Below, piece after piece: positions 45,844-63,346 of a stretch of 64,000 nucleotides of DNA. Source of the DNA: an uncultured Desulfospira sp. Its GTDB lineage: Bacteria; Desulfobacterota; Desulfobacteria; Desulfobacterales; Desulfobacteraceae. The stretch covers positions 2,272,001-2,336,000 of the forward strand of contig OY760175.1 of assembly GCA_963663165.1 (NCBI GenBank), written 5' to 3'. Numbering within the stretch: position 1 is the stretch's first letter; each line of letters opens with the position of its first letter. A program made the position numbers and the translations under genes. The notes under the pieces were generated by a model that was not told the DNA's origin, ran no database searches, and saw only the letters and a program-made list of their open reading frames with translations.

Positions 45844-46679
45844 ATGAAAGTATCAAATGCAATCGACACTTTTCTGAATTATCAAAAAATGAATTCAAAA
45901 AAAACACCATAAGAAATTATCGTTTCTTTCTGACACGGTTCAGAAAAGAATATGGTTTTTTTGAAATATCAGAAATCACATCCGAGCAGGTTATGATTTT
46001 TTTGACCAAGGTTACTGAGGGTCAAAAGCAATCAACGAAGAAACTTAAATTTTCCATGCTCACGTCATTCTTCAATTTTATCAAAGATTCATTTGATTCA
46101 ACGCTCTCAAATCCCTGTGACACCCCTATATTGAGAAAAACATTCAAAACAGCCAAGGGTAGGTCGTGGACAATTCTTGACAGGGACATTGTGGACGAAA
46201 TTATATTTAAGACAAATAATTCCAGAAACCGGTTGATGCTCGAACTGATGGCAAGAGGTGGGATGAGAGTTGGAGAGGTCCTGAAATTAAAAGCCAAGAA
46301 TGTGCACGGCAGAAAATTGGTTTTATCTGATCCGAAAAGCGGAAATCAGACTGAGATTGTTTTTATCCCTAAAAAAGTAGCGGACCGTTTACGAGAATAT
46401 ATCATCAACGTCAAGATAGGAGATGACCATAACGTGTTTCCATTTGGATACACCAGAGCCCGTGAAATAGTTCAAAATGCTGGGAAAATGATAAATTTGA
46501 ATTTGAATCCTCACGATCTTAGACGCCATGCCGCTACTTATGCAAGCAGATCAGGCGTTCCCATTGAAATCGTTTCAAAAATAATCCTCCGCCATGCGAA
46601 TCTTTCAACAACACAGCGGTATCTTGGGAAAGTCAGTGATACAGAGGCAATCCACTGGATTGATAATCTTTACAAATAA
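45844..46679 (+). CDS. Tyrosine recombinase/integrase requiring a -1 shift at an A8 run (45897-45904)
   Basis: AAGGAG RBS plus ATG 45844 gives MKVSNAIDTFLNYQKMNSKK, then TP-stop. The -1 frame continues NTIRNYRFFLTRF into the 45993 ORF with GMRVGEV, HDLRRH, LRH and TTQRY. Confidence 0.8.
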
Positions 46680-46812
46680 AATTTGGGGGACAGGTAAACG
46701 CCGGTCCCCGAGTTACTTTATAACACCATATCTTGTGCCAAGCCTTTGCTAAGATTCAAAAAATGTAACGCGGATACGCCAAATCAGCTACAAAATAATA
46801 TAACGGGAAGAT

Positions 46813-46880
46813 ATCCCGCCGCTTTACCCCGCCAATAAAATATATAAACCTTACCTCGCTTACCCCGCAGTTATCCCGCC
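46813..46880 (+). repeat. Five A(C/T)CCCGC-type direct repeats inside the transposon left end
   Basis: atcccgc 46813, accccgc 46826, acctcgc 46853, accccgc 46862, atcccgc 46873. Confidence 0.75.
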
Positions 46881-47057
46881 GCGAATTTTTTCGAAAAAAG
46901 CTTTGCCAATCTATTTGGAAGAAGTCAATACTTCCTTGATAAAAAAGGCTCGAAGCTGCAACTTCGAGCCTTCAATGTAGACATCCGAGTAGGTTACGGA
47001 AGCCACACCACCGTTTTTATCTAACCACGGCTTCCGTAATTTAGCAAGAGCGGAAGC

Positions 47058-47447
47058 ATGGAAATCGTTTTATTAAAACGTATCGAGTGTAAGCGATGTT
47101 TCCAAATTTTCTATGTGTGCCGCAGTTGCTGGCGGGGGCAGGCATATTGCTGTCAAGAATGCCGCCAGGAGGCCCGCAAAGAAGCGCACTGCAAAGCTCA
47201 AAAAAAATATCGACAAACGCCAAAAGGTAAAGAGGCCCACCGTCGTCAAGAAAAAAACAAAAGATTACGTCAAGCTGAAAAAACCATGGATGATACATCT
47301 ACTATACCCGGTGTAACCCATGATAGTGTCTCTCCCAAGCCATTATGTTCCGGCCCCTGTTGCCATTTTTGTGGGAAAATTGGTTGGGTTGTAGAGCATT
47401 TTCCCTGGCGCGGATATGCAAAACGACCTGTAAGGGCCAATCAATGA
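47058..47447 (+). CDS. Cys-rich basic protein (transposon accessory gene 1)
   Basis: CKRC...CRSCWRGQAYCCQEC, basic helix, C-terminal CHFC. Confidence 0.75.
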   Translation: MEIVLLKRIECKRCFQIFYVCRSCWRGQAYCCQECRQEARKEAHCKAQKKYRQTPKGKEAHRRQEKNKRLRQAEKTMDDTSTIPGVTHDSVSPKPLCSGPCCHFCGKIGWVVEHFPWRGYAKRPVRANQ

Positions 47448-47456
47448 AACATCTTA

Positions 47457-47861
47457 ATGGAGGATAAGACAATGAAAAAAGAAATATTGACAGGCCATTG
47501 CAACAAAATGAAAAACAGATTTTCATCCCGGGAGCTATTTAAACTGAGAAACGATATCCCTGTGGATATGCTGATCCGTGACCATTTACAGATTCCATCC
47601 AAAATCAGGGATGGTGTTTTCCGGTTTTTATGTCCTTTGTGCAATGAGTTTCAAACCGCTGTAAATCCAGCCACCAATCTGGCCAGGTGTTTTCGGTGTG
47701 AGAAGAATTTCAACACCATTGATCTGGTCATGGAAGTCAAGGGATATGGATTCAGGGACAGTGTATTTTTTTTGAAAGAACTGGATGCGGTCTCCTATGT
47801 CCCGGCAAATGTGTTGACGTCTCTTGCCACCGGTATCGGTCAACCCTGGCCTGGGAAGTAA
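47457..47861 (+). CDS. Stand-alone CHC2-type (primase-like) zinc-finger protein
   Basis: FLCPLCNE...ARCFRCEKNFNTIDLVMEVKGYGFRDSV resembles the DnaG zinc-binding domain; exact start uncertain. Confidence 0.8.
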   Translation: MEDKTMKKEILTGHCNKMKNRFSSRELFKLRNDIPVDMLIRDHLQIPSKIRDGVFRFLCPLCNEFQTAVNPATNLARCFRCEKNFNTIDLVMEVKGYGFRDSVFFLKELDAVSYVPANVLTSLATGIGQPWPGK

Positions 47862-47863
47862 AG

Positions 47864-48418
47864 ATGAAACGGCTGCTTCAACTGGAGACCCTTATTGCCC
47901 GTAATCAGGAGAGTTTCTATAAGATCGGTCAGGCGTTAAAAGAAATCCGTGACAGCCGCCTGTACAAACTGGCCCTGTTTGAGACATTTGAAGCATATAC
48001 CAGGGAACGGTGGGATATGGGCAAGTCCCATGCATACCGCCTGATCAAATCTTATGAAGTGATCTATAATTTGTCCCCAATTGGGGACAAAACACCTGCC
48101 AATGAATCCCAGGTCCGGCCTCTTGCTCAATTGGACCCCCTGGACCAGCGCAACACCTGGAAGGCAATCATAGACAACGGTATTGAGTTAACCGCACGGA
48201 ACATCAAAAAATTTGTAGAGGCCCAAAAAATACCCCCGGAGAACAAACCGGATTTGGCGGAACGGATTTCGGCTGAATACATGGCAGCCGTACATGCAAT
48301 GATTGAACAGGTGCGGGTGGCCCAGCATGATCATTGGCAGCAAACGTCCCGGCAGGCTGCATTGTTGTGGCACAGGGTGATCCGCGAAAAAATTTTATCA
48401 AAAGGGGCAAGACAATGA
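47864..48418 (+). CDS. Helical putative DNA-binding protein (DUF3102/ParB-HTH-like)
   Basis: FYKIGQALKEIRDSRLY...TFEAYTRERWDMGKSHAYRLI...NESQVRPL. Confidence 0.65.
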   Translation: MKRLLQLETLIARNQESFYKIGQALKEIRDSRLYKLALFETFEAYTRERWDMGKSHAYRLIKSYEVIYNLSPIGDKTPANESQVRPLAQLDPLDQRNTWKAIIDNGIELTARNIKKFVEAQKIPPENKPDLAERISAEYMAAVHAMIEQVRVAQHDHWQQTSRQAALLWHRVIREKILSKGARQ

Positions 48419-50082
48419 AGAACCTGAGCCTTGATGACCGTTTTTATTTGCTGCTCCATAAAAAAATCATGAATAAAACCGGATCAGCCAAAAGAAGGTC
48501 CAAAAAATATTACAAAGACCAGTACAGGAAAACCGGCATTATCCCGACGCCCCTTCTACTGGTTGAAAAAGGGATTATGGACGGCCGCAAATGCAGCGGC
48601 CGGCCCCGGTCCATAGATGAACAAACCAAAAGGCGGTTTATCGAAATGGTCAAGGCCTCCTGTGACCCGTCATCCCAGGGGTTTATTTTTATTACCCGAA
48701 AAGCCAGAACCATTAAAAATTACCACTATTGGCTTGAAAGAGAATTGGGAAAAACCATCAGCCTTCCGGCACTCAGGCGATGTGCCCAAAGGGAAGGCCT
48801 TAAATTTTACCTGGAAAAAGAAGATTTTGAAGAAAATGCCCCGGTGAAAAACGCATTCAAGCCTGTTCCGGTGTTTGGCCTGATACAGGTAGACGGTTGC
48901 AACTTTCGATATTTAAAAATCAAAAATGAGGCTGGCCACTGGCAAAAACCCCAAGTCATTGAAACGTTTGATACCGGTTCCCGGTACATGTTTGAACTTG
49001 ATGCCTATTTCGATGAAAGCAGCTTAAGCTCAGTGGATTTGTTTAACCGGTTTTTGCTTTCCACCCCATTTCCCCAGAAGAAAGTCCGGTTCAGGCCGGA
49101 TAACGCCACAGGATTTGTAAATCTCAAAAGAGTCATCAACGCCTTGAATATAAAACATTCCGTTCCCGGAGGATTTTATCTGGCGCCGGATTTTTCAAGG
49201 GTAAGTGCCCCCAGGGACAAGGCCCATCTTGAGTCCTCCCATCGCAGTCTTCATAATTTTGAAATCCGAATCATCAAGGCGTTTGAAGACAGGATTGTAA
49301 AGACCGTTCCAGGGGTTATCTTCAATAATAAGAAAAAAGAAAAAATCACTGTGACACTCCTTGATATTACACTCCGGGATTTAAGACACAGCCCCCTGAT
49401 AAAAGAATACCGCCACGAACATAACCACACCAAACATTATTTTAGCGAAAATGGAAAGATCAGTGCATGGGTTCCGGCACAAAAGCTGGAAGAATTTTTA
49501 TCAAGGCAAGCCGATATCCTTACCTTTTCACCGGATGAGGTGCAGGAATATATGAAGTATGGCTACAGGAAAATAAAAGCCACTGTATCTAACAAAAGAA
49601 CCATTCGCCATGACAACCGGATCTATTGTGTAACCAGTGGTACAGACCGGTTCAGCAGGCATAAAAGTACACCGGTGCAAATATCAGTATATAAGGGCAA
49701 GCTGTTTATTTTTGAACGGGGGGAAGACGGCATACTATTGGGCGAAGCCCTTGCCACAAAGCCGTTTGACAAACCACCTGACCCAAAATCTGTACCAGTG
49801 GCCCCGGATGAACTCGACATGATGATCATTTTTCTGGAAAAGCACAACATGGCCGTCGACCGGCGAGTCTTAATTGAAGCTTATCATAGCGGCCTCACTC
49901 TGGCCCGGGCTCAACAAGTGCTTCATCATAATCAATCCAGGTACAAGAATTATATGAAAAAGATGCGGCAACCTGAAACACAGAAAAAGCAGGCGGTATT
50001 CAATGCCTTTATGCTTGACTGCCGGAAATTGATCAATACAAACCATGTGGCCACGTATGCATCCTGCGGAGATTTAACATGA
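48415..50082 (+). CDS. DDE transposase/integrase (rve; Mu/TnsB/IS21-like)
   Basis: SGRPRS HTH region, LIQVDG, ETFDTGSR, RPDNATGF, KAHLESSHRSL; ATG 48415 overlaps the upstream stop. Confidence 0.8.
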   Translation: MKNLSLDDRFYLLLHKKIMNKTGSAKRRSKKYYKDQYRKTGIIPTPLLLVEKGIMDGRKCSGRPRSIDEQTKRRFIEMVKASCDPSSQGFIFITRKARTIKNYHYWLERELGKTISLPALRRCAQREGLKFYLEKEDFEENAPVKNAFKPVPVFGLIQVDGCNFRYLKIKNEAGHWQKPQVIETFDTGSRYMFELDAYFDESSLSSVDLFNRFLLSTPFPQKKVRFRPDNATGFVNLKRVINALNIKHSVPGGFYLAPDFSRVSAPRDKAHLESSHRSLHNFEIRIIKAFEDRIVKTVPGVIFNNKKKEKITVTLLDITLRDLRHSPLIKEYRHEHNHTKHYFSENGKISAWVPAQKLEEFLSRQADILTFSPDEVQEYMKYGYRKIKATVSNKRTIRHDNRIYCVTSGTDRFSRHKSTPVQISVYKGKLFIFERGEDGILLGEALATKPFDKPPDPKSVPVAPDELDMMIIFLEKHNMAVDRRVLIEAYHSGLTLARAQQVLHHNQSRYKNYMKKMRQPETQKKQAVFNAFMLDCRKLINTNHVATYASCGDLT

Positions 50083-50741
50083 AGGCAGATTTTATCAGTG
50101 ACAAACGAAGGGTATCATACCTGAGCGCCACTTATAGCCGGATCTACCGGGGCCGGAGCGTACTCATTGAGGGAGATTTTGGAGCGGGAAAAACCAGGTT
50201 TTTAAAACTGCTTCGTCCCAAAAAACTTCATGCCGTATGGGTAGAGTCCCTGTTCAACATACACGAAACCCTGGCATCCATACTCAAAGAATTGAACTAT
50301 GACACCACAGCCACATATCGCAGAACTCCCCAGTACCTGAAAATGATCTGCAACCTGTCCAACTGCTTTATTATTATTGATGAGGCCAATGATCTGGATA
50401 CCAGGGTCTGGCCATATCTTAAGCGGATCATTGATGCCGGTGTTCCTATTGTTTTTGCAGGGCTTCCAAAGGTCAGGACCTATTTGATTCGCAATCACCC
50501 TGATATCCTCAGCCGGTTGAAAACCCTGATTTTATATCCCATAGAGGTTGAGGGCTTTATCGAACAATATAAAGATATCCAGCAGGAAGCCGTTGAGCAA
50601 ATTTATATGGCGGTCAAAGGCGACATGCGTAAATTTAAAGAAATCTGTACTGACTGCCGGGACAAGGCAAAGGAATTGAACCACCAATTTGTTGACATTA
50701 ATCTTGCCCTGGAGTTTATATCTGACCTTCCTCCCCAGTAA
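50079..50741 (+). CDS. AAA+ ATPase (MuB/TnsC/ExeA-like transposition helper)
   Basis: Walker A GDFGAGKT, Walker B IIIDEA, VFAGLP, LSRL, GDMR; ATGA-coupled to the transposase. Confidence 0.88.
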   Translation: MKADFISDKRRVSYLSATYSRIYRGRSVLIEGDFGAGKTRFLKLLRPKKLHAVWVESLFNIHETLASILKELNYDTTATYRRTPQYLKMICNLSNCFIIIDEANDLDTRVWPYLKRIIDAGVPIVFAGLPKVRTYLIRNHPDILSRLKTLILYPIEVEGFIEQYKDIQQEAVEQIYMAVKGDMRKFKEICTDCRDKAKELNHQFVDINLALEFISDLPPQ

Positions 50742-50763
50742 TCCCTGAAAAGTAGATCCGTAA

Positions 50764-50803
50764 AAACAGGCCACTTCTGATTTAACCGGAAGATGGCCTG
50801 TTT
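50764..50803 (+). terminator. Hairpin after the ATPase gene
   Basis: aaacaggcca cttc ... gaag a tggcctgttt. Confidence 0.55.
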
Positions 50804-51335
50804 ATATTTTGACCTTAATTGATTAACGCAATTTTTCGCCTGGATATACCTGTGAAAATCAGGGAACCACAGATTGTTTTTGAATCTTTTTTGAACCGTT
50901 ACATTAATTTGCAACTTTCAATATTTTTGACTGCCAACCTAACCTACTAAATTTATATGAAAAACCATTTCTTTTTTGAAATAATGAACGAAAAAAAATC
51001 CGTTACATTATTTGAATGTGAGCAAGCCTTTATGATAAGGCGATGGAGACTACAAACGCTAAGGCTCACCCTCGAATTGTGGGAGGCCGAAGGACTGAAA
51101 AAAGAATTGAACGGCGTTATTGACAAGGGTTCAGGTCCACAATGATACCATTATGTTGCGAGTGGGTCTAACCTGTTAAATTTAAAGGCGATTTTAGCTA
51201 TTCACATTGCAAATCAATATTGTATTAAAATTCAACACGTTAAAAGTTATTTTAGAAATTTTAAAGATCAGTGGCAACATAATTTTTTGTTTTACTACAT
51301 ACCCCTCCAAAGCTAGCAAAAGCTGCTTCAGTGGT

Positions 51336-52355
51336 TCATAAACTGTCAAGCCAGGCAAGGATTTCAGCACTATTTCCCCAGTCGATTAACTCATCAATTT
51401 TTTTGTCATGAGTTATTTTCGATTGCATGTATTCCATGAGCGTATTTTGGACTTCCCGTTTTTTTGACAGATCCAGCTGCAGATAGGTCATTGTTGATTC
51501 AATACTTTGATGACCAAGACGATTTTTGATATCCGATACCGGAGCACCTGAACTGACCATGTTGACCGCGCACGAATGCCTGAAGCAGTGAGCCGGGCTC
51601 AGTCCTTTCAGCCGTTTTTCCGGCAAGGCCAAGGTCAAATACTTCCTGCAAATTTTATTAATTCCATGTCTGGTCATTTCCCGCTTCCGTTGATTGATAA
51701 ACAGCCTATGGGCAAATAAAGGGATGGGATCTACCCTGTGATTGCTGATATAGTCCGAGATCAAGGAGGCGGTTCTGGAGCATAGATTAATCAACCGGTA
51801 TCGGTTTCCCTTTCCCAGGACCGCAATGGTTTCGTTTTCGGGGTCAAAATAATCAAATTCCAATGTGGCAATTTCACTGGCCCGGGCACCGGAGTCATAA
51901 AGCAGATGGAGAATGGTAAAATCCCTCATGCCTTCTTTCTTTTTCAGATCAACGGCACTGAAGACTTTCATGATTTCTTCAGGATATAAAAATCCCATCA
52001 CCTTTTTTTGAGCTCTTTTCTGAGGGATGTTCAGGAGCCTATCGGCAATTCGTTTTTTATCCGGATGCATGAAGCGGATCATCTTGGCCAAAGACTTAAT
52101 CACGGCCAGGCGTTGGTTTCGAGTCTGCACGCTATTTTTTCGGTTTTTTTCCAGATGCTGGAGAAAGGCAAGCACTGCATCCACCGTTAAGTGTTCGATT
52201 TTCAATGACTTGATTTTTATTGAGTGATGATTCGCCAGAAAATGCAGAAATAACGACAGGCTCTGCTGGTAAGCTTGAACACTTTGTTTGCTCGTCCCTT
52301 TTATCGAGGGCAAGTATTCATAAAAATACTGGTGCAGGCAACTTGTCAATCTCAT
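51336..52355 (-). CDS. Tyrosine recombinase (RitC-like)
   Basis: TRNQRLAVIKS, GARASE, GKG, HCFRHS, LGHQSIESTMTY. Confidence 0.92.
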   Translation of the reverse strand: MRLTSCLHQYFYEYLPSIKGTSKQSVQAYQQSLSLFLHFLANHHSIKIKSLKIEHLTVDAVLAFLQHLEKNRKNSVQTRNQRLAVIKSLAKMIRFMHPDKKRIADRLLNIPQKRAQKKVMGFLYPEEIMKVFSAVDLKKKEGMRDFTILHLLYDSGARASEIATLEFDYFDPENETIAVLGKGNRYRLINLCSRTASLISDYISNHRVDPIPLFAHRLFINQRKREMTRHGINKICRKYLTLALPEKRLKGLSPAHCFRHSCAVNMVSSGAPVSDIKNRLGHQSIESTMTYLQLDLSKKREVQNTLMEYMQSKITHDKKIDELIDWGNSAEILAWLDSL

Positions 52356-53329
52356 GCACCCTCGCTTTTTGATTTCGAAAAATCAAACAGTTGCCAACGG
52401 TGCTCAGCATCCAGTACCTTCAAATAATAGGTTGTGTATTTGTATTTGCTGTGCCCCATATAAGCCGCCAGTACAGGCAGGGCATTTTGGCAGGATTTTC
52501 CTTGCTGTTTTATCCTTTTCAGCGTGTTCACAGCAAACGAATGCCGCAGGGAATGATGTGAAGGCTGGCTGAAGTTTGTAGTACCGATTATTTTCCGGGA
52601 GTGATCAAAATTAATATCTGTGAGAGCCTGTTTAAATCTGCGATTTATAAACATACGTACCAGTTTTTTCCCTTTCACCTTTACCAGCAAAAAAGGGCTG
52701 TCATCCTCATCAGGGAATAACCGGCGAACTTTTAGCAGGTTGTTGATTTCATAGGCTACGGCTTTGGGTATAGGGATCAATCGATCTTTTCTAAATTTTG
52801 TCTTTTCAATATAGATTGTTCTTTCTTCGGGCCTGTAATGGGTTTTCAATAAATTAAGTGTCTCCGAGGTTCTAAGTCCGCACCGGGCCATCAACAAAAA
52901 GGCTATATAAGCACTGAAATCTGACACATAGAATCTCTGGCTTGTCCGCATCGACTTGATTACAGCTTTGAGAAAACGGTCTGTTTCTTCCGGAGAAAAT
53001 ATAAAAGGAATAACGTGATTTTCCTGTAGCTCAGTGATTTCCTGCAACGGATTTTCCAGAATCACATCTTTGCGTATAAGATAATTGAAAAAGATCTTGA
53101 GCATTCTAAAAATCGTATTTATGGACCGGGGTTCAAGATCAAGTTCTGCTCTGAACCGGATAAAAAACAGCGGATCAAAGGATGTCCAAGTCACTTGTTT
53201 TTCAGACACATATCGATCAAGTACCCTAAGACCGTACATCATTGAGGTGTTTGAGTACCCCAGTTGAAAACGATATGTGATAAAATCCTCCATTTGTTCA
53301 GCCAAGAAACTTTTAAAACGTTTCATCAA
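52352..53329 (-). CDS. Tyrosine recombinase (RitB-like)
   Basis: CGLRTSE, TKFRKDRLIP, HSLRHSFAVN, LPVLAAYMGH...TYY. Confidence 0.92.
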   Translation of the reverse strand: MMKRFKSFLAEQMEDFITYRFQLGYSNTSMMYGLRVLDRYVSEKQVTWTSFDPLFFIRFRAELDLEPRSINTIFRMLKIFFNYLIRKDVILENPLQEITELQENHVIPFIFSPEETDRFLKAVIKSMRTSQRFYVSDFSAYIAFLLMARCGLRTSETLNLLKTHYRPEERTIYIEKTKFRKDRLIPIPKAVAYEINNLLKVRRLFPDEDDSPFLLVKVKGKKLVRMFINRRFKQALTDINFDHSRKIIGTTNFSQPSHHSLRHSFAVNTLKRIKQQGKSCQNALPVLAAYMGHSKYKYTTYYLKVLDAEHRWQLFDFSKSKSEGA

Positions 53330-54200
53330 GGATAACCTCCCGCATCAGGCCGATATGAATGCTCAGATACTTTTTTGTCGAATCGAGGCTTTTATGTCCC
53401 ATCATTTCTTTGATTTCATAGATGGACATACCGGACTCCAACATATTCTGGGCAAATGAATGCCGCAGCCAGTATGTGCTTGATCCAAGATTGTTTTTCG
53501 TCATGCATTCTTTTATATCTCGGGGGATATCGCTCCTGTTGGCCGGTTTATAAGGTGGTGTCAACTGTAAAAATAGAACTCGGGATTGAGTTTCAGGTCT
53601 CCCGCCCACAATATAGGCAGTGATCGCTTTGATTATGTTATCGGGAAGGGGAAGATGAGCAGGATTGCAATTTTTTCTTGAACGGATAAAAATCTCTTTC
53701 TGTCTAAATGAGATGTCATCCAGAGTTAGCAACCTGATTTCTTTCGGCCTTAACCCCAGATAACATGCCAGATGCAGGGTGGCATTGGTGCGAAGGTCTT
53801 TTGCTGTTGACAGGTCCAGACTGTCAAACAACTTTTGAATTTCATGAGTGCGCAAAAATTTGGGCGGCTTTGGTGGTCCGAACTCCGGAGGGCTTACCAC
53901 TAAAGCGCCAAGGTCCTTTTTAAGATCTCCGTGTTGATAAAGGTACTTTAAAAATCTTCGTACATGTGACCGGTGCGTCCTGCATGTCCCGGGAGCACGC
54001 CCCTTGTTGCAGACTGCTAAAAATTGATCGACCTGGTCAATGGATATGTTGCCCAAAGAGGTGTTTTCCCCCTGAAGATAGGCCGCAAAATTTGTTAATG
54101 TCCTTTTTGTATAGGACACCGCATCCCCGGAAGCTTGATCTCGACAGTAGTCCAGGTATTTCTCCACTGCTTTGGTGACCTTATTGTCAACTTCCATCAT
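53313..54200 (-). CDS. Tyrosine recombinase (RitA-like)
   Basis: LGLRPKEI, YWLRHSFA, MGHKSLDSTKKY; ATG at 54200 with GGAGG RBS. Confidence 0.9.
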   Translation of the reverse strand: MMEVDNKVTKAVEKYLDYCRDQASGDAVSYTKRTLTNFAAYLQGENTSLGNISIDQVDQFLAVCNKGRAPGTCRTHRSHVRRFLKYLYQHGDLKKDLGALVVSPPEFGPPKPPKFLRTHEIQKLFDSLDLSTAKDLRTNATLHLACYLGLRPKEIRLLTLDDISFRQKEIFIRSRKNCNPAHLPLPDNIIKAITAYIVGGRPETQSRVLFLQLTPPYKPANRSDIPRDIKECMTKNNLGSSTYWLRHSFAQNMLESGMSIYEIKEMMGHKSLDSTKKYLSIHIGLMREVILDETF

Positions 54201-54672
54201 GGCTGCCTCCAAAAGATTGCAGGACAAGGCTGCGGATGGTTGCCGGATCGTGCAGTTCCATGTCTTTTTGGCTTTGAAGGGGGGCTGCTGAGGGCAGAGC
54301 CACTCTTTCCGGAAGGGACAATACTTGGAAAAGGTTGCCGTCAAATGCGACCAGGTTCTTGTCAATCAAGGCATTCCTGGCAAGGATGTAGTCATCAACA
54401 CAAATCCTGAGCAGGGTGCAGATTTTATCATAGCCGTAATAGGACAGCCCATGACGATCCGCCACGATAATCAAAAACAGGTACAGCAGGAGCTGATGAT
54501 GATCCAGGCTTGCCCAGAATCCGTCCCGCAGGAACCGGTGCTCGATAAAAGCAAAGCTTCCTGCAATTTTTCTGATGCGGCAGGGATCTATGGGATTTTT
54601 TGCAATGGACGCACGAAAACGGCGTTGGGGCTTTTGATTCCGATTTTTGGCTTTATTTTGTCCGGTCTCCAT
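54187..54672 (-). CDS. Winged-helix/HTH-like accessory protein
   Basis: FAFIEHRF...LLLYLFLIIVADRHGLSYY..DKICTLL; overlaps the ritA start. Confidence 0.7.
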   Translation of the reverse strand: METGQNKAKNRNQKPQRRFRASIAKNPIDPCRIRKIAGSFAFIEHRFLRDGFWASLDHHQLLLYLFLIIVADRHGLSYYGYDKICTLLRICVDDYILARNALIDKNLVAFDGNLFQVLSLPERVALPSAAPLQSQKDMELHDPATIRSLVLQSFGGSHDGS

Positions 54673-54719
54673 GGCATTGCCTCCTTGAAATGATCGTTAA
54701 AGGCAATTTACCCTTTTTC

Positions 54720-55328
54720 TCAGGGGGGATCAGGCCCCGTTTGTTGTTGGAACCGGCTTTTTCCATGATGTTTTTTTTGAGGGCGAGGGCCAAACCCTAA
54801 CGGCGGTGGCAGGATATCCAAATGTGAAGCGGCAAGTTCCCGGAGATGGGGTAAAACAAACTCAACCCCAAGTGCAGATCTCAATGATGATAAGGTTGCC
54901 TGACCATCATTGGATAAGGACGGAATCAGGTCGATTAATAAAATCAAACTTACATGAATCAAAAACAGTCTGTGCCTCATCCATCGCAAGACACCAGGCA
55001 GGCCGATATCTGGACGCATATTGTCTGCTGCGGCCTCCTGGCTTGGTGCTGCTTCGATCTGATTGATGACCGTTTCCGCCTCCATCAGTGTCCCTGGCAG
55101 ACGTGAGGACAGGCAATCGGGCAACAGCCCGAAGGTGGTCCTGCCATCCGGACAATACCACCGGGCGATTTTTGCACCGTCGGGATACTTTCTGCAATAG
55201 GTCCCATGCCTGGCAAATTTGCAGCCACCTTCCGGATGTAACGGGCACCGATCCAGTTTTGCATCTTTCCATGCCTCCTCCTCTATATATTGTTCAACAG
55301 GAATGTCGGTGGCGAATCGGAGCTGCAC
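54720..55328 (-). CDS. Cys/His-containing accessory protein (DUF6431-like)
   Basis: CPLH...HGTYCR...RWYCP...TFGLLPDCL. Confidence 0.6.
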   Translation of the reverse strand: MQLRFATDIPVEQYIEEEAWKDAKLDRCPLHPEGGCKFARHGTYCRKYPDGAKIARWYCPDGRTTFGLLPDCLSSRLPGTLMEAETVINQIEAAPSQEAAADNMRPDIGLPGVLRWMRHRLFLIHVSLILLIDLIPSLSNDGQATLSSLRSALGVEFVLPHLRELAASHLDILPPPLGFGPRPQKKHHGKSRFQQQTGPDPP

Positions 55329-55357
55329 GACTTTAACCTTGCGTTAAAATTCAAAAT

Positions 55358-55783
55358 ATGAAACATTTTCCCATGGCAAAGATCGGTCGCAATACACCAT
55401 GCCCTTGCGGCAGCGGTAAGAAATATAAGAAGTGTTGTTTGTCGTTGCAGTCAGCGGGAACTCAACCCAAGCCCTATCCTGCCGGGTTTACACCAGTTTA
55501 CACGGAATTGGATCTGCTTTCAAACAGTGTGATTGATCTGATCGATGAAAACAAATTCGACGAGGCAGAAGCTGTATCAAAGAGATTATTGCATGAATAT
55601 CCAAATCAGATTGACGGCTTTCACAGGTTGGGACAGGTCTATGAAGCTCAGGGAAAAAAGCATGAAGCGGGAGAATACTATCAAAAAGCCGCAGATTTTG
55701 CCCGGACAATGCCGGGTTTTGATCCGGAAACTGTTGAACGCTTCCTTTTAAAAGCAAAGAAATATAGGGAAGAAGCAAAGTAG
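55358..55783 (+). CDS. SEC-C motif plus TPR protein
   Basis: [23 protein letters not shown]-like [18 protein letters not shown]. Confidence 0.85.
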
Positions 55784-56416
55784 AAAAACTATATCCAAAG
55801 AAAATAACTCATTTAGAACTTTTTATAGAAGAAAATCTCGCTACAAAAAAAGTCGCAACATAAATACCATTAAAGCCCACCTTGATATTCCTTGTTTGCA
55901 TCATGGATACCGCCCAATTATTTGAATGGATAGAGAATATAGGCTGATAAAAAACGGTTAACTTCTGGCAAATCAATTTTCAAAGTATTTTGCCCTGAAT
56001 AGTCTTTACACGACCCAACCAAGCTGATATGCAATCCACGTATATACTAATGATGATAACCGATCCGGTTATCCGTTAATTCCTCTTGATATGCTGATAG
56101 ATATCAGATTGCTCAAGATAATCGGACAACTACTTGTACACCTGAACCTCATGAGGCTGAACGCAGATACAGGTTATTTGAATTTGGAGGACTAATGGTC
56201 GCTGATCCAACAGGATGGATATCTGATTTTTACTGGCACCTATGGCTTTTTTTTTCTGAAAACAATGATCAATTTTTCTACGGATTTGCTGCTCCTTCGC
56301 ACCATCGCCCCCCTTTATCTCCACACAGGTCACTTGTTGGGTACGATTCAATTGTCGAGTATCATACAGGCTTAGACCCCAAAAAATTCGAATCCTTTCA
56401 GGAAGATCTATCCTGA

Positions 56417-57676
56417 TTATATCGGATTTTGGGGAGGGCTTCGGTACCCACCCAAAGAAGCCGAAATGTAAAGGTTATGCAACCAGTTGTCGTGATATCT
56501 AAATTGATTCAGCCTTTCAGCTGGGCTTTTGAATCCGTTATGCCTTTTGACGGTTTCCGGGTTGTAAGGAGCAAAATTATGAATGAGTGTCCATCCTCGA
56601 ATGCTCAGTTGCGCTGCATCCATTACTCCATGAAAATATTGAGTGCTGAACAGATGGCGATCCATTCTTTGCATCAATCTGTCAACCATGTTGCTCGTTC
56701 TGTGTGCCTTGGGATGATCATAGGCGTTTCTGTATGAAACAATATTTTTCCGTAATTTGTTTATGGGGTCTGATATAACATTCGGAGCATCTTGCTTTTT
56801 GCACCATTCGATCAACCTCCTGATTCGCTGTGAAAATGATATTTTGCTTTCAGCCCGATAACAATCCCATAGTTTTGATGCTGTTTCATCAAAAATGTCT
56901 CTGTATTTCTTCTTTGCCCTATCACGAATTTTTATGAATACATGCAAAAAACAACAAACGATGGCTACCGATGGAAAAAGGCTTTTCCATGCCTGCCGGG
57001 TAGCTTTCCATCCGTCTATATTGACGGTCTCCGGAGAATATTCAGGCCGAAGGCATTGGGCTTCATCCCGGTAAAATTGATAAGCTCCAGTCAAGGCTTG
57101 TTTTCCAGCATTTTGAGCAACAGACGCTCCAAGAATGCAGCCATTTCCAACAGTTGTTGCCACATAAGTTTTTTCTCCCAGAATCCGGGTATGCTTCTCA
57201 TCCGCCGCAAGATGTTGCGGGATGTCTTCCGGTTGTCGGATGGTTGTTCCAACGATACTATTGCGACCAAGTGACTGCTCAATCCGGTACCAATACATTG
57301 GATCCTTACCGAAAATGTGGCTCAGTGCCCAGAAGGGCACATTAAATTTTCGCATAAAAAGAGCTTTTTCAACCTCATCGACCAAGCCGGTGAGATAGGG
57401 TGTCACAAAGGAAGGGCGGACTGTGTAAGCAATGCCGGACATCTCGATTCGCCGAATAGGGATCAACATTTTTTTTGAGTGATAGATATCTTTCATTCGA
57501 TATCCTTCTCTGGAAATTTCAGCTGGAAATAGTTCCGGGAAAAGCTCAATCCTTTCATTGAGACAGTTCCGAAATTTGTCAGGATTTTGAATGTTGTCAT
57601 TATAATCATCTTGAGAAAAAGGCACACATATGGTTCTATGGTTTCGGATTGCGGATTCTGTATCTGTTTCCCACAT
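56417..57676 (-). CDS. Transposase (Mutator/IS256/ISH6-like)
   Basis: LAADEKH, VNIDGW, CFLH (CxxH), RTSNMVDRLM. Confidence 0.85.
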   Translation of the reverse strand: MWETDTESAIRNHRTICVPFSQDDYNDNIQNPDKFRNCLNERIELFPELFPAEISREGYRMKDIYHSKKMLIPIRRIEMSGIAYTVRPSFVTPYLTGLVDEVEKALFMRKFNVPFWALSHIFGKDPMYWYRIEQSLGRNSIVGTTIRQPEDIPQHLAADEKHTRILGEKTYVATTVGNGCILGASVAQNAGKQALTGAYQFYRDEAQCLRPEYSPETVNIDGWKATRQAWKSLFPSVAIVCCFLHVFIKIRDRAKKKYRDIFDETASKLWDCYRAESKISFSQRIRRLIEWCKKQDAPNVISDPINKLRKNIVSYRNAYDHPKAHRTSNMVDRLMQRMDRHLFSTQYFHGVMDAAQLSIRGWTLIHNFAPYNPETVKRHNGFKSPAERLNQFRYHDNWLHNLYISASLGGYRSPPQNPI

Positions 57677-57719
57677 ATAGTTAGAGACCTCCTTGGCGGG
57701 TTTGGTCTCTAACTATATG
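57674..57719 (-). promoter_or_regulatory. 16-bp perfect hairpin covering the transposase start codon and part of the RBS
   Basis: catatagttagagacc (57674-57689) / ggtctctaactatatg (57704-57719). Confidence 0.8.
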
Positions 57720-59217
57720 AAATTATTGACAAAAAGTCTAGTCGGAATTCCCTTTGATTTCAATGGGTTACGAAAAAGTTTTTTACCCCCTTCCAATGAT
57801 TAGAGCGGTTTTGGCCTCTGTTCCCCTAAATCCGTTATAATCAGGATCTATCAAATGGACATTTAAGAACTAATTTGTTGGGACAGGGCGGCCCCACCCT
57901 TAACGTAAAAATCCAATTTATACAAAGGAGCTTCCAAAATACCCTTGGGTGTACCGCAGTTCCTGTGACCACATACTATTCCATGTCGCTAGCGGAATAT
58001 AATGTTTCGCGGGAAGGAATCAAACGTATGCTGGGCCATCTTGTTACCGAGAAAACTTTTGATGAGCCAGAACGGTATATGCACCGACTGGGGGCCTTTG
58101 ATATTATTAACTTACCGAAGCACGCCGAAGATGAGCAATACATCCTTAATTTTCGTCTACCAAAGCGACGGGATGTTTCCATGACGCCCCACCATAGAAA
58201 TTCCTATGAGATTTGGCGCAGGGATGATTTTGCACAAAACCGGCACTGGGCACATGTTTGTCTTTACAGCGGAGAAACTCCGGTGAGTGACGCTCTTCAT
58301 ATTCTTGACCCAGAAGTGAGGGTGTTTGGACCTGTCGCTATAGATGAAACATTTGATAGAACTGAATTTCGACTTTTTGATGAAAAGGGACTCTTACACC
58401 ATGAGGAGTCCGTATGGATTAATCAGTTTGCTATGAATTTTTCCATAGGGCAAGGAACTATTAGGTATGACAGCCCATTGACAGATCGTGGCAAAGGAGG
58501 AGGTGCTGTTGATACTGTCGAATCTTTGACCAATATAAGTGTTCGCTCTCGGGGTCGTGAAAGTATAACGAATGTAACAACCGGACAAGAATTCCGTGAT
58601 TATTGCCGAGAAATGCGTGAACGAGGTAAAACGTTATTCAAATCGCCTTCACCGGATAGATGGTTTCCCAAAGGAATAACAGGATCGTTGAATACATTGG
58701 AACATGTCAAAACATTGATTGAGGGTCAAGGTGTCATAAAAGTGTGGATTGTTGATCCTTTTTTCGATGCGAGGGCTGTGGAAAATCTTATTCCAACTAT
58801 TGGGGTCAGCAACCTTGAATTAGTTGTTATTACAAACCTAAGAAATATTGATGCATGCCGAGAGATTGGCGAAGGGGAAAACGAAACCGATCCTGTGAGT
58901 AACTTGGAAAAGAAACTTGATGTTCTTCGACCAATTATCCACTGTAACCTGAAAGTTAAAAACCTTCACACTACCCCGGGTTCAAATGAACAGGTTTTTC
59001 ATGACCGATATTTGTGTCTTAAAATGGGAAAAGACAAAGTTTCAGTTTATCTGCTCTCAAACAGCTTTAACGCTTATGCAGAGAATTATCCCTTCTGTCT
59101 AAGTCAATTGAGCGGCTTTGCGGCTAAAAATGCCTATGATTATATTATTAATCTTGAAGGTTTGAAAAATCCAGTCACTGGTTCGAATCTGTACTGTGAT
59201 CCTGACTGGAGTAAATA

Positions 59218-61269
59218 ATGTGTAAATCCATTCCACAAGAACAATTTCCCTGGATGGCATGGTTGTTACGCAAATTGTCTTCAAAAGAGGAACCGGCTGA
59301 TGATCAGCTTTTCAACAACGCTGCAAATCAAGGATGGTTGACTTGGCAAGAGCATGGTTTCTGGCGTGTTTGTGGAGCATGGGCGAAGGGTCTTCCAACT
59401 AATAAAGCCATAGTCGAGCATATTTTGACTGTCGACGATGCTGCCCACTTCGCCATGGCCATGGGAGAACTATCATCTGGTGTAAACGGCTTCCCGCTGG
59501 ATGCATGCAGCAAGGCGTTGAATGAAAGCCCTGGATTTCAAAAAAGTGATGCGGTTTTTCAACGGATTGGTGAGCTGGCTAAAAAAAATTACCCTTCTGT
59601 TGAATGTAATTTGGATACGCTTAAAGTTGCGCAATTTATAAATTCGTGCCAGTTAGATTATGATTCTTTTCAGATGGTTTCTTCTTTCACTGATTACCCC
59701 AGGTTCCTCAAGCCATTGAGGAGATACGGTTTATCTTACGGCATGTATATAGCATACATGTTAAATTTCAAAGCTTTTGGACTGTGGCTATCTCGGCAGA
59801 GCGACCCGGCTCTGATCGTCCCAACTCTCAGCCAATTTTCTATACTTTTCTACTTAGCTGATCAAAAAACCGTTGTTGGGCTCCTTAATTCCAGGCATCC
59901 GTTCCTTCAACTAAATGGGATCATGGCCCTGCATGCTTATCGAGATAAAGGGACCACATGTGACTGGCACTACCCATTGGAACAGGCCTTTGCAATAGTC
60001 GATAAGACTGAGCTATCTATAGAGGACTTCGCCTGGACTACATTTAGTCGTTTTAATGAGTTTGAAGGGCTTTGTGGACGTGCAAAAGGGGTTTTTGAGT
60101 ATCAAGTAAAGCAAGGCCCTGAACTTTCAGAAAAAGCAAAAGAGTCCAAAGAAAGGTATGAAAAAATTGTTGCTAGTATGGAGGATGAACTGTCAGTTTT
60201 TACCAATCACTTCCCCAAAAATGGGATAAACGAGAAACAGGCCTCTTATGTTTTGGGGGTTACTCGTGGGCGGCTTGGACTTCCTCTGCGGGTGGCAGAA
60301 AAGCTCCCAGAAAAAACAAAGAAGACGCTTGTTAAAGCGATTTTCAAAAGATTTCACTCCCAGACAGGTATTTTCAAATTAGCGAGTGAAACAGAACACT
60401 ATTCGTTGCCCTATCGTTGGAAGCAGCGTGTGAACTATTCTGCGCGAGCTTTTGTGCAGTATCATGCAGGCAAGAATATAGGCAGAAAATTTGGTTCTCT
60501 CGCCAAACCAGTGGAAGATGCACTTGTGCCGAATATGCTTGAACCATACTTATACTATCGGCGACATCATAAATGGATGCATGTTTTTGGCAGATTAGGT
60601 TTACTTTATTTTTATACAATAGAAATCGCAAAGACGTCTGATTTGGAAACAGAGAAAGGGGGTAGCTTTTTAATTCAGCATATGGTTAAGCAAACCCTAA
60701 TTTTATTTTTGCATTATTCAGGAGAGTATTTCACATCATTATACGATGTGTTAAGTCTTCGAGTAGCGAATCTGTTCGAGGGGAAGGTTAAGAAAGACAC
60801 GTTAGAAGAGTTGAAGGCTTTTGTAGACCATCCTCGAGGGTATTCGATTACAAAATTGCTTTTGGTTTGGACTCTCCCAGAATTATTTGAAGGTTATAAA
60901 AATAAGGTGATGCATCTGTTTAGAATTTTTGATCTACTCCCACCTGACGAAGACGGTATACTTGAAAGATTTTCAGCCTATGCAAATATTATGGATCGTG
61001 CCCTTGTGGCTGCGCACAGGATGAAGGATTTATCTTTAAGCAACGAATTGGTGGCTGACTGGGAAAAGAGGTTCTCAGTCTGGAAACCGGTTGTAGGCTC
61101 TAAATGGTTGCTCGCGCCACATTGGCAACAAAAAGCCTTGAGCGGAGATAATGAGGGGTATACGTGGCTTTGTGGATTGCCTGAGCTTAGTAACTGCTTG
61201 TGTCGAAGGTACTGTGACGAGATGTACATAAAACATAGAGGGGCAAACAAAGATAATACGAAAATATAA
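59218..61269 (+). CDS. Hypothetical 683-aa protein, coupled to the PLD-like gene
   Basis: Long ORF; TAATG stop/start overlap at 59216-59220. Confidence 0.8.
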   Translation: MCKSIPQEQFPWMAWLLRKLSSKEEPADDQLFNNAANQGWLTWQEHGFWRVCGAWAKGLPTNKAIVEHILTVDDAAHFAMAMGELSSGVNGFPLDACSKALNESPGFQKSDAVFQRIGELAKKNYPSVECNLDTLKVAQFINSCQLDYDSFQMVSSFTDYPRFLKPLRRYGLSYGMYIAYMLNFKAFGLWLSRQSDPALIVPTLSQFSILFYLADQKTVVGLLNSRHPFLQLNGIMALHAYRDKGTTCDWHYPLEQAFAIVDKTELSIEDFAWTTFSRFNEFEGLCGRAKGVFEYQVKQGPELSEKAKESKERYEKIVASMEDELSVFTNHFPKNGINEKQASYVLGVTRGRLGLPLRVAEKLPEKTKKTLVKAIFKRFHSQTGIFKLASETEHYSLPYRWKQRVNYSARAFVQYHAGKNIGRKFGSLAKPVEDALVPNMLEPYLYYRRHHKWMHVFGRLGLLYFYTIEIAKTSDLETEKGGSFLIQHMVKQTLILFLHYSGEYFTSLYDVLSLRVANLFEGKVKKDTLEELKAFVDHPRGYSITKLLLVWTLPELFEGYKNKVMHLFRIFDLLPPDEDGILERFSAYANIMDRALVAAHRMKDLSLSNELVADWEKRFSVWKPVVGSKWLLAPHWQQKALSGDNEGYTWLCGLPELSNCLCRRYCDEMYIKHRGANKDNTKI

Positions 61270-61479
61270 GTATATTATCAAAAGCTGACAACGAAGGTGT
61301 TATCAAGGCTTTTTAATTATGAAATTAAACCGTTAAATGATTTGACTCAACAATGAACATGCTGGGGATAAAGCCGCATATGTTCAGGTTAAAAATCGAA
61401 AATGAGTCAAAACCTTTGAGGAATAGCAAAGTGAGCATTTTGTCTATTTATGTAGCGAGTTTTTTTTGTTGCGTGTTCT

Positions 61480-61542
61480 ACCCCGCCCGACCCAGCTGGA
61501 CCCCGCTATACCCCGCCATATTTTGAAAAAATACTACCCCGC
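61480..61542 (+). repeat. Five ACCCCGC-type direct repeats, four with exact 10-bp period
   Basis: accccgc 61480, acccagc 61490, accccgc 61500, accccgc 61510, accccgc 61536. Confidence 0.8.
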
Positions 61543-61583
61543 CACCATCCATCCGATCATAGATCTAAGGAGGTATCAGGTCT

Positions 61584-62123
61584 ATGAAAAAACAAATCCG
61601 ACAGCGCAGGTGTAAAAACTGCCAAAATTTATTCAAGCCAGATCCCCGTCATTTGAAACGGCAAAAATTTTGTAACGAACCCGAATGCAAAATTGCCAGT
61701 AAAAAACACAGCCAGCAAAAATGGCTGAATAAGCCAAAGAATCAGGATTATTTTTCAGGGCCTGAGAATGTGGTCCGTGTTCAGGAATGGCGCCAAAGCA
61801 ATCCTGGTTACTGGAAGCGAACAAAGCCTCCGGGAAAGCCATCCTTAACTGAAAATACGTTACAAGAGATAAAAACTGCCAAAACCATTGCTGGTAAAGG
61901 ATCTTCGATGGATTTAATTCAAATACCGTTACAAGATTTAATATCGGCCAAGACCCTTGTCTTTATTGGGTTTGACACCCTCCTTAACAAAAATGCGTTA
62001 CAAGAGATTATTGATGCCACGGACCAGGAGACGGTAAAATTGACACCAGATATTATGAAGGAACTAACCAAAAAGAAGAGGTGTCAGCATGGGCAAACGA
62101 TTTTCTTCAAAGGAACTTTATAG
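61584..62123 (+). CDS. Cys-rich basic accessory protein
   Basis: CKNC..F.PDPR....QKFCNEPEC...VQEWRQSNPGYW; AAGGAGG RBS. Confidence 0.75.
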   Translation: MKKQIRQRRCKNCQNLFKPDPRHLKRQKFCNEPECKIASKKHSQQKWLNKPKNQDYFSGPENVVRVQEWRQSNPGYWKRTKPPGKPSLTENTLQEIKTAKTIAGKGSSMDLIQIPLQDLISAKTLVFIGFDTLLNKNALQEIIDATDQETVKLTPDIMKELTKKKRCQHGQTIFFKGTL

Positions 62124-62397
62124 ATTACGAAATTCAATACCCATTCATGTGTTGATCGAAACGGAACTGGGTATTCCAGCCAAAATAAGTGAAGGGGTTT
62201 TCCGTTTTCTGTGTCCCTTGTGCAATGAATTTCAGACTGCAGTTAATCCTAAGACGAACCTGAGCAGGTGTTTTCGATGCGAAAAGAATTTTAATACCAT
62301 AGATCTGGTAATGGCCTGTCGGCACATTGGTTTTGTTGACAGTGTCAAATATCTTCAGATTATTTTGAATACAAGAGCACCTGATCATGACGTCTGA
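62089..62397 (+). CDS. Stand-alone CHC2-type zinc-finger protein
   Basis: GVFRFLCPLCNEFQTAVNP.TNL.RCFRCEKNFNTIDLVM is shared with 47457-47861. Confidence 0.82.
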   Translation: MGKRFSSKELYRLRNSIPIHVLIETELGIPAKISEGVFRFLCPLCNEFQTAVNPKTNLSRCFRCEKNFNTIDLVMACRHIGFVDSVKYLQIILNTRAPDHDV

Positions 62398-63346
62398 TTT
62401 GGGAACAGAACTCAATATACAGTCTTATCGTCGATGTCGAGTGCCGGCAGAAATAATGCCGCCACTCGGCCTTCCGTTGCCGGAAATTTTTCATGGGTAT
62501 CTGAATTATTACAAACACCAGCTTCGTAACGAAAACAATATCGGCGCAATGAGGCAAATACTGATGAGTTTTCATTTTTTTCTTCAAACGTCAGGCATTC
62601 TTTTAAATGAAATATCCATTCATCAGGTTGATCAATTTTTAGCCCGTTACAACACCAATTATTCTGCCGGGGCAGCCAGATCTAACCGGTCACATCTTCG
62701 GCAGTTTCTCAAGCACCTCTACCGAGGCGGGTATATCAAAAAAGACATCTCTGTGCTGGTGGTGAGCCCTCCTGAGTTTGCTCGGTCAAAACCACCGAAA
62801 TTCTTGCGCCCCCATGAAGTGCAAAAAATGTTTAAGCTCATGAATTTGTCAACAGCAAAAGATCTCCGTATTTATGCGGCTATGCACCTGGCATATTTTT
62901 TGGGATTGAGGCCCGGAGAAATCAGCTCACTTACCCTGGATGACATCTCTTTCAGGCAAAAAGAGATTTTTATTCGTTCGAGAAAAAATTACAGCCCTGC
63001 TCATCTTCCTGTGCCGGACAATGTGATCAAGGCCATCACCGCTTATATTATCGGCGGGAGACCAGAAACCCAATCTCGAACCTTATTTTTACAGTTAGTG
63101 CCGCCTTATAAACCGGTTGGCAGGAGCGACATCCCCCGTCATATAAGAGAATTTATGGCTGATAGCAATCTTGAGTCAAACACATATTGGCTGAGGCATT
63201 CTTACGCCCAGAATTTGCTGGAGTCCGGTGCTTCCATTTATGAGATAAAAGAAATGATGGGCCATAAAAGCATCGGAGCAACGCAAAAATATCTGAGCAT
63301 CCATATCAACCTGATGCGGGAGGTTATCCTCGGTGAAACGCTTTAA
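62387..63346 (+). CDS. Tyrosine recombinase (RitA-like)
   Basis: LGLRPGEI, YWLRHSYA, MGHKSIGATQKY; clear paralog of 53313-54200. Confidence 0.92.
   Translation: MTSDLGTELNIQSYRRCRVPAEIMPPLGLPLPEIFHGYLNYYKHQLRNENNIGAMRQILMSFHFFLQTSGILLNEISIHQVDQFLARYNTNYSAGAARSNRSHLRQFLKHLYRGGYIKKDISVLVVSPPEFARSKPPKFLRPHEVQKMFKLMNLSTAKDLRIYAAMHLAYFLGLRPGEISSLTLDDISFRQKEIFIRSRKNYSPAHLPVPDNVIKAITAYIIGGRPETQSRTLFLQLVPPYKPVGRSDIPRHIREFMADSNLESNTYWLRHSYAQNLLESGASIYEIKEMMGHKSIGATQKYLSIHINLMREVILGETL

Follow-up and report, generated by a model that had tools for sequence, protein, structure and literature searches.

In the accessible parts of the literature, RIT elements are described as three overlapping tyrosine recombinase genes with short terminal inverted repeats, present in multiple identical copies (PMC3414803; PMC8138268), with trios of ~3.5 kb and no accessory genes in the account of Van Houdt 2012 (PMC3414803). 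Accessible excerpts likewise report exonuclease-protected free forms of unknown structure for RIT elements and call their mechanism 'yet to be deduced' (PMC5737581), list IS21 among the families with circular intermediates, and present the IEE PrimPol-helicase as a large catalytic protein that is encoded outside the insertion sequence and promotes excision (both bioRxiv 10.1101/2023.06.07.543989). How the replication step of copy-out and replicative transposons starts, and how RIT elements move, are open questions. Here we describe a stretch of 64,000 nucleotides from an uncultured Desulfospira sp. (GenBank assembly GCA_963663165.1, contig OY760175.1, positions 2,272,001 to 2,336,000 of the forward strand; the window), in which a DDE/AAA transposon (TnA) and a RIT element (RIT2) both carry a stand-alone zinc finger (ZF) gene and a subterminal array of short repeats. 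Their features, in positions of the window, are as follows.

46741..46746, forward strand: left copy of the 6-bp target duplication AGCCTT, repeated at 51025-51030
46747..51024, forward strand: DDE/AAA transposon TnA, 4278 bp, TG...CA ends, six identical copies in the genome
46764..46805, forward strand: two TGTAACG/TATAACG repeats at the left end of TnA, mirrored at the right end
46813..46879, forward strand: subterminal array of TnA, four exact A(C/T)CCCGC motifs and one variant, with an AT-rich spacer between pairs
47058..47447, forward strand: Cys-rich basic gene of TnA, type A, also the first gene of array-less RIT3 and IS21 elements of the same genome
47508..47861, forward strand: stand-alone C4 ZF of TnA, resembling the DnaG zinc-binding domain (PF01807), its amphipathic tail a variant one; further ATGs lie upstream, at 47457 and 47475
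47864..48418, forward strand: open reading frame 3 (ORF3) of TnA, kept across the TnA family (family F3 in 37 loci)
48415..50082, forward strand: DDE transposase of TnA, putative triad D160/D229/E273 inferred from motifs, no Pfam family above cut-off
50079..50741, forward strand: AAA_22 ATPase of TnA, PF13401 above cut-off
50897..51007, reverse strand: two TGTAACG repeats at the right end of TnA, where the array is absent
51025..51030, forward strand: right copy of the target duplication AGCCTT
61448..61466, forward strand: left terminal repeat of RIT2 (TTATGTAGCGAG...), beginning TTATG at 61448; the right end lies beyond the window
61480..61542, forward strand: subterminal array of RIT2, four exact motifs and one variant
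61584..62123, forward strand: Cys-rich basic gene of RIT2, type B
62089..62397, forward strand: stand-alone C4 ZF of RIT2, resembling the DnaG zinc-binding domain (PF01807), tailless
62387..63346, forward strand: RitA tyrosine recombinase, PF00589
63333..64000, forward strand: RitB, continuing past the window; RitC is next in the genome

A preliminary description of this DNA had proposed that both elements begin with the same module of five A(C/T)CCCGC repeats, a Cys-rich gene and a CHC2-type zinc finger, followed by different catalytic engines. The engines do differ, since TnA has a DDE transposase and an AAA_22 ATPase and RIT2 has three adjacent, overlapping tyrosine recombinases. The array is likewise present in both, but each consists of four exact copies (at 46813, 46826, 46862 and 46873 in TnA; at 61480, 61500, 61510 and 61536 in RIT2) and one variant (ACCTCGC at 46853; ACCCAGC at 61490). 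TnA combines TG...CA ends, repeated subterminal sites, a DDE enzyme whose triad is assigned by motif only, an AAA ATPase and a target duplication, as do IS21/Mu/Tn7-like DDE + AAA transposons; neither its transposase nor its ATPase matches an IS21 model, and both form families separate from the IstA/IstB groups. It was recovered as a single 4278-bp unitig at ~5x local depth in a public sequencing run. RIT2, bounded by the inverted repeats TTATGTAGCGAG and TTATGTTGCGAG, is present in four identical copies, and its empty-site joint was found in a public run.

The two ZFs are 70% identical over 90 amino acids, in agreement with the close similarity first noticed, and both match PF01807 above cut-off. 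Their ligands, however, are of the type CxxC...CxxC, with four invariant Cys and no His, in place of the Cys-His-Cys-Cys pattern of DnaG. A profile of the ZFs finds the zinc-binding domain of Bacillus DnaG (1d0q) at E 8e-6, and the model of the RIT2 ZF (predicted local distance difference test, pLDDT, 92.7) has 1d0q as its best structural match (Foldseek E 1e-4, TM 0.72). Profile and model thus both indicate that the stand-alone ZF has the fold of the DnaG zinc-binding domain (PDB 1d0q, 2au3) over the whole domain. Unlike DnaG, it stands alone in mobile elements, paired with a repeat array, and has no catalytic or helicase-binding domain: ZF proteins of 92-300 amino acids lacked the TOPRIM catalytic and helicase-binding domains (TIGR01391 at 24 bits against a cut-off of 283.6; no dedicated search for longer fusions was made). 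All 998 candidate clusters passed as members of the family, giving 547 representatives at 50% identity, and the 150 representatives listed measure 66-245 amino acids. Named records are mostly from Desulfobacterales; the few labelled as other phyla are mostly short contigs of metagenome-assembled genomes and may be misbinned. None of 44 pattern matches on viral contigs was confirmed as a ZF.

Across the family, the array accompanies the ZF. From 190 loci holding the closest, best-scoring matches we obtained 104 distinct ZFs, and ZF and array were found together with four classes of engine: RIT trios, TnA-type DDE + AAA, IS21-type IstA/IstB, and an IS481-like transposase + ExeA, the last two named in part from general family features plus Pfam rve/AAA_22 matches. 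The preliminary description had suggested tabulating engines and arrays among ZF homologues. Counting distinct ZF loci whose relevant end could be seen, 28/28 RIT, 25/25 TnA-type and 7/7 IS21 loci had the array on the expected strand of the expected end (60/60; for two of the seven IS21 loci, with istB not in view, the engine was assigned by likeness), against 34 of 5000 random 2.2-kb windows. It was still seen in 17 of 39 further loci with that end partly out of view and in three of five unclassified loci, both misses having <570 bp of upstream sequence. Nineteen weaker ZF matches were sampled in addition; the seven IS481/ExeA-type loci among them had the array 3.28 kb upstream in four cases, lacked upstream sequence in two, and were represented by a nested element with the array 6.3 kb away in one. 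At one locus (L133), the array, a type-A Cys gene and a ZF precede a 749-amino-acid transposase-like protein, possibly a fifth engine.

Elements without the ZF provided the converse comparison. RIT element 1 of the window, the control, was confirmed to have neither ZF nor array, as originally remarked.

51151..55863, reverse strand: RIT element 1, with a reverse SEC-C/TPR gene, a type-D Cys gene, a winged-helix gene and ritABC; four copies
54187..54672, reverse strand: HTH_36-like winged-helix gene of RIT element 1, alternative to and mutually exclusive with the ZF (PF13730 below cut-off)

Fifty RIT loci were then retrieved through RitA, that is, from the side of the engine. Ten had Cys + ZF, with the array in 10/10, and 40 had Cys + the winged-helix gene, with not even two motifs in any (0/40, Cys-B + winged-helix loci included; the left repeat was in view in 15, and several are one element fetched twice). 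Likewise, of the copies in the window genome, neither the 17 winged-helix ones nor the 12 IS481/ExeA ones without a ZF have an array of their own. No counterpart array emerged for the winged-helix elements, as 24 front ends had no shared k-mer cluster (best 3/24). TTAATTC-like repeats do occur at the left ends of some winged-helix RIT elements (L298, L300, L310) and are a possible counterpart site for the winged-helix protein.

The Cys-rich gene, which had been counted as a common part of the module, fell out of it. Types A and B gave no BLASTP alignment (E 0.53) and a profile-profile probability of 46% (E 2e-4), which makes them at most remote relatives; Cys genes are swapped freely among elements. 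Since both types are found with and without the array, a pairing of array and Cys gene was rejected and the array's partner is the ZF. The cis array and the trans ZF thus move together, independently of the catalytic engine. The exchangeable cassette that had been proposed therefore holds as to its independence of the engine, over four classes, but not as one front-end unit: the pair is not contiguous and one Cys gene can replace another. IS21 elements have the ZF as their last gene, with the array behind it at the right end and on the opposite strand; the array of IS481/ExeA elements lies at the left end, separated from the ZF by ~3.3 kb, still near the terminus and pointing inward. Engine labels placed on a ZF tree, itself quick and weakly resolved, gave eight changes where four are the minimum, with one TnA-type ZF inside a RIT clade of 99% support.

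The array itself has the consensus TA(C/T)CCCGCC, starts 32-92 bp from a terminus with 5'-ACCCCGC-3' pointing inward, and has motif spacings grouped at 9-13 and 24-27 bp, the longer one spanning an AT-rich spacer. All 15 clusters of at least three motifs within 120 bp in the 6.7-Mb genome are located at ends of its 15 ZF-bearing elements; five rearranged control motifs gave 0-4 clusters. At the level of the taxonomic family, a triple motif pattern was found in 78 of 161 genomes, against 2/161 for a reversed control, and thus in more genomes than had ZF matches (48/161). One could suppose that the array is a DNA structure, a G-quadruplex on the G-rich strand, or that array and gene hitch-hike without interacting. 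Most arrays do have at least four C-runs, and related elements share ancestry. However, no more than 32 of 80 arrays fit the canonical G-quadruplex pattern, the A, G and C beside the run are conserved better than its last C (a comparison biased by motif selection), and co-occurrence persists where gene and array lie at different places, as in IS21 and IS481/ExeA elements. We regard this explanation as very improbable. The array was also considered as a transposase site and rejected: separate TGTAACG repeats stand at both ends of TnA, and the array is confined to one end and also occurs in RIT elements. The TGTAACG/TATAACG repeats are probably the transposase sites, distinct from the array.

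Arrays also occur on elements without genes. Twenty were examined because no listed ZF adjoined them. Four of these proved to be miniatures of ~230 bp that lack genes but have TG...CA ends and the array, with a clear duplication in three; another has a ZF at a distance of 3.2 kb, one more is an unrelated tandem, and the remainder resemble relics or contig ends. Over five miniature lineages, found partly via the array, identity was 0.92 in the motifs, 0.99 in the transposase-type sites and 0.39 in the adjoining spacer. An array-blind search of 401 genomes returned 16 places. Ten were miniatures in seven genomes, all with an intact or decayed array, and the remainder comprised one autonomous left end, four chance-like matches and one two-ended locus beside an AAA gene. 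Shorter miniatures were not found in 251 genomes, the single match reading like coding sequence. The ~230-bp family, with TnA-type ends and array, is spread over several Desulfobacterales families (L191, L192, L194, L195, L211, L213, L229, L246). An apparent array within a replication gene of an integrative and conjugative element (L192) proved to be a miniature inserted there, interrupting a replication-gene-like open reading frame, and the 'left array' of the element from strain HRM2 is a decayed miniature.

These placements bear on what the ZF does at the array. That it binds there is, in our judgement, quite probable. Were it a transcription regulator, with the array as operator of an element promoter or of a circle-junction promoter, the position of RIT and TnA arrays upstream of the first gene would be explained, as would the use of a generic winged helix as the alternative gene; a 9/12 sigma-70-like site also lies 24 bp downstream of the TnA array, although one was found where 0.8 were expected. 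Promoter scans were at chance level, the RIT2 array region had no forward promoter match, the IS21 array lies behind the last gene on the opposite strand, and the array is conserved in geneless miniatures. The role in regulation that had been offered thus fits poorly as pure transcriptional control, a reading we hold to be rather improbable, and the ZF probably acts at the element end and not on a promoter. Target selection, another role proposed at the outset, found no support, as the flanks of six TnA insertion sites have no common motif.

The ends of the ZFs suggest what such an action might be. Many carry a disordered linker and a short helix of the pattern P-x-x-I-G-(D/E)-I-L, present in 43 of 114 ZF tails against a mean of 1.9 in shuffled ones. 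The host genome encodes DciA and DnaB (PF05258 matched once in the genome, in the host gene), and the host DciA begins with the tail pattern, (F/P)xHIG(D/S/N)I(I/L), as do 30 of 31 DciA proteins of the order. Scored with a profile of the DciA N-terminus, IS21-type ZF tails reached 14.1 against 2.0 for shuffled ones, and five of six contain the motif; of a diverse set of ZF tails 36 of 127 passed the profile, of the winged-helix tails 12 of 22, and of the C-termini of six other element proteins none. The pattern of the DciA N-terminus recurs at the start of the DnaB linker helix (L365 DnaB, residues ~166-177), a likeness suggesting that DciA-type loaders mimic this helix. Accessible parts of two studies of Mycobacterium tuberculosis DciA imply that its single N-terminal helix inserts into the cleft between the docking and linker helices of DnaB (PMC13501899; PMC12547741). 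When an IS21-type ZF tail peptide was modelled with DnaB, both from genome G136, the complex scored 0.41 against 0.01 for the best control, which weakly supports the contact; runs agreed in at least 82% of contacts, with a partner pLDDT of at least 49. Of the solved pairs 116 of 157 reached the mark used, as did 2 of 215 mismatched ones; passes at 0.60 or below came from only 18 solved pairs and from both mismatches. Like DciA, a tailed ZF combines a nucleic-acid-binding domain with one short helix of this pattern. Unlike DciA, it lacks the KH-like DUF721 domain (neither window ZF matched PF05258), its helix is C-terminal, optional and absent from the RIT2 ZF, and it appears to have a sequence-specific site. 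By these comparisons the ZF is neither a DnaG (no catalytic domain, changed ligands) nor a DciA (no KH domain), though some of its family may act in the manner of a DciA specific to the element.

Taken together, we propose that the element encodes, in the ZF, a DNA-binding adaptor that descends from the DnaG zinc-binding domain, with the TA(C/T)CCCGC array as its site. The pair would mark one end of the element, whichever recombinase cuts, and recruit replication functions there, allowing a copy to be made as a copy-out circle or by replicative transposition. A ZF with a DciA-like tail would be an element-specific helicase loader: next to the AT-rich spacer, several of them on the array would dock host DnaB, using the groove formed by its linker and docking helices. 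ZFs without a tail, such as that of RIT2, would rely on another element protein or contact primase. We give about an even chance to the ZF binding the array and helping to bring host replication to the element end, and for the module as a recruiter of replication the balance is equally undecided.

One relative points in the same direction. A sister IS481/ExeA element in the window genome (~11 copies) has, as its last gene and in the slot that the ZF occupies in relatives, an RSF1010-type RepB' primase.

3998..4783 of locus L370 (G000:C1:1422997-1423782): RepB'-type primase gene, PF16793 + PF22448

Like RSF1010 RepB' and the iteron/initiator origins of plasmids, the module joins an element-encoded factor to a cis signal in which direct repeats flank an AT-rich spacer; unlike these origins it belongs to no replicon, stands at a transposon end, and has a ZF without catalytic domain. 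This primase also favours a different explanation, in which displaced single-stranded DNA presents the array as a signal for priming, and the stand-alone zinc-binding domain recognises it and guides the host DnaG catalytic domain in trans, much as an ssi site works with its primase. The fold, the conserved ribbon residues and the strict strand polarity of the array agree with it, and it works for tailless ZFs. On the other hand, DnaG zinc-binding domains select trinucleotides, which the multi-copy motif of 7-9 bp exceeds, and the explanation overlaps the adaptor model as its tailless branch; as a separate account we find it hard to credit. Of the three roles originally offered, replication or priming appears to fit best.

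The ZF on its array could instead be an architectural or regulatory factor of recombination itself, like IHF, Xis or Fis, serving end bending, synapsis, directionality or left-right discrimination with no link to replication. This would account for the subterminal position, the fixed polarity, the near-helical-turn spacings (9-13, then 24-27 bp), the retention in miniatures and the tailless ZFs. It leaves unexplained the DciA-like tails on both the ZF and its winged-helix alternative and the RepB' primase in the same slot, and it is not obvious how one bending site would aid three unrelated chemistries. We think it unlikely, if worth keeping in mind.

Several observations weigh against the proposal that the ZF and its array recruit replication. 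As to the pair, the sampled loci are related to one another and not independent; weaker IS21-type loci had the right-end array in four of six cases, the other two having decayed motifs only; a distant ZF (38%) lies in a non-transposon island without an array; four of the ten array-blind miniatures keep only one intact motif; and no array is present at the two-ended locus that adjoins an AAA gene (L243). DnaG zinc-binding domains act on single-stranded template, so duplex binding by the ZF would be new. As to the tail, the modelled one is IS21-type and from another genome, and its pass may reflect likeness to solved DciA/DnaC complexes. RIT tails are at background on the DciA profile (1/21 above threshold), TnA-family tails score 2.2 against -0.2 for shuffled ones (0/37 above threshold), and seven IS481/ExeA-type ZFs are tailless or truncated. 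The RIT2 ZF is tailless, and the variant helix of the TnA ZF is barely above shuffles. Because the ZFs of the window and those of IS481/ExeA type lack a canonical tail, the helicase-loader reading is direct for only part of the family. The winged-helix protein, modelled at pLDDT 57.9 with no structural match at E<=0.001, appears to have a generic fold that fits a regulator as well as an initiator. In public data, no RNA run containing the elements was listed, and four contig-only runs, whose contigs drop rare forms, listed no end-to-end joint of the kind expected of joined-end circles; neither absence counts as evidence.

Some further features of the window were recorded. ORF3 of TnA has a weak match to the Borrelia partition family NF033725 (E 6e-6, below cut-off), and with a score of 12.1 its N-terminal helix ranks first among ten window proteins on the profile of the DciA N-terminus; this may be chance, or ORF3 may supply the tail missing from the TnA ZF. 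The leader of the type-A Cys gene (46940-47057) contains two hairpin-like segments common to TnA and an IS21 element (L334) and similar in RIT3-type elements, possibly an RNA-level control travelling with the Cys gene. The C-terminal half of the RIT2 Cys gene (61845-62028) has three repeats spaced 69 bp, encoding an LQE/DI-type peptide, with CGTTACA. A short tyrosine recombinase (45993-46679) lies immediately ahead of the TnA insertion; it has partial paralogues elsewhere in the genome, one of which gives an empty-site-like joint in public runs. Within the left end of RIT element 1, the SEC-C + TPR gene (55358-55783), on the opposite strand, is retained in the RIT1 relatives inspected. Between the two RIT elements are an IS256-like element (56405-57852) with 31-bp inverted repeats, a diverged relative of which is very deep in one public run, and, at 57875-61269, two large open reading frames (447 and 683 amino acids) with no Pfam match.

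The first remark, that no described system with such a layout was recognised, was upheld: the literature searched, with most subscription papers, supplements, ISfinder and TnCentral outside its scope, contains no description of the ZF/array module. As far as the accessible texts go, the present RIT elements differ from those described in measuring 4.1-4.7 kb and carrying Cys + ZF or Cys + winged helix; engines related to IS21 and to the Tn6049-like transposase + ExeA/GspA elements carry here a ZF and an array, neither of which is mentioned there (PMC2864759); and IEE, unlike the ZF module, has no cognate array (bioRxiv 10.1101/2023.06.07.543989). A portable cis site with its reader, and a primase zinc domain as a site-specific adaptor with a helicase-loader tail, are in no paper searched. 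We conclude that the cis-trans module, common to several kinds of mobile element of sulfate-reducing bacteria, is real, undescribed and portable between unrelated recombinases, and that a replication-recruiting mechanism is plausible. The broadest version is more doubtful and we put it forward tentatively: that Desulfobacterota elements share a plug-in replication-recruiting module, made of a ZF, winged helix or RepB' primase plus a terminal array, which would act as an element-specific DciA mimic loading host DnaB at the element end, and that DDE transposases and tyrosine-recombinase trios would both move by replicative copy-out. The module supplies a defined protein, a defined site and 230-bp natural miniatures as minimal substrates, and a cultured strain offers an example (Desulforapulum autotrophicum HRM2, plasmid pHRM2a, with the tailed ZF HRM2_RS27280). 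If the replisome-loading reading is true, it would provide RIT elements with a mechanism and reveal how transposons call in the replisome; should the replication role prove wrong, the cis-trans pairing would still be a new, testable layer of transposon control.

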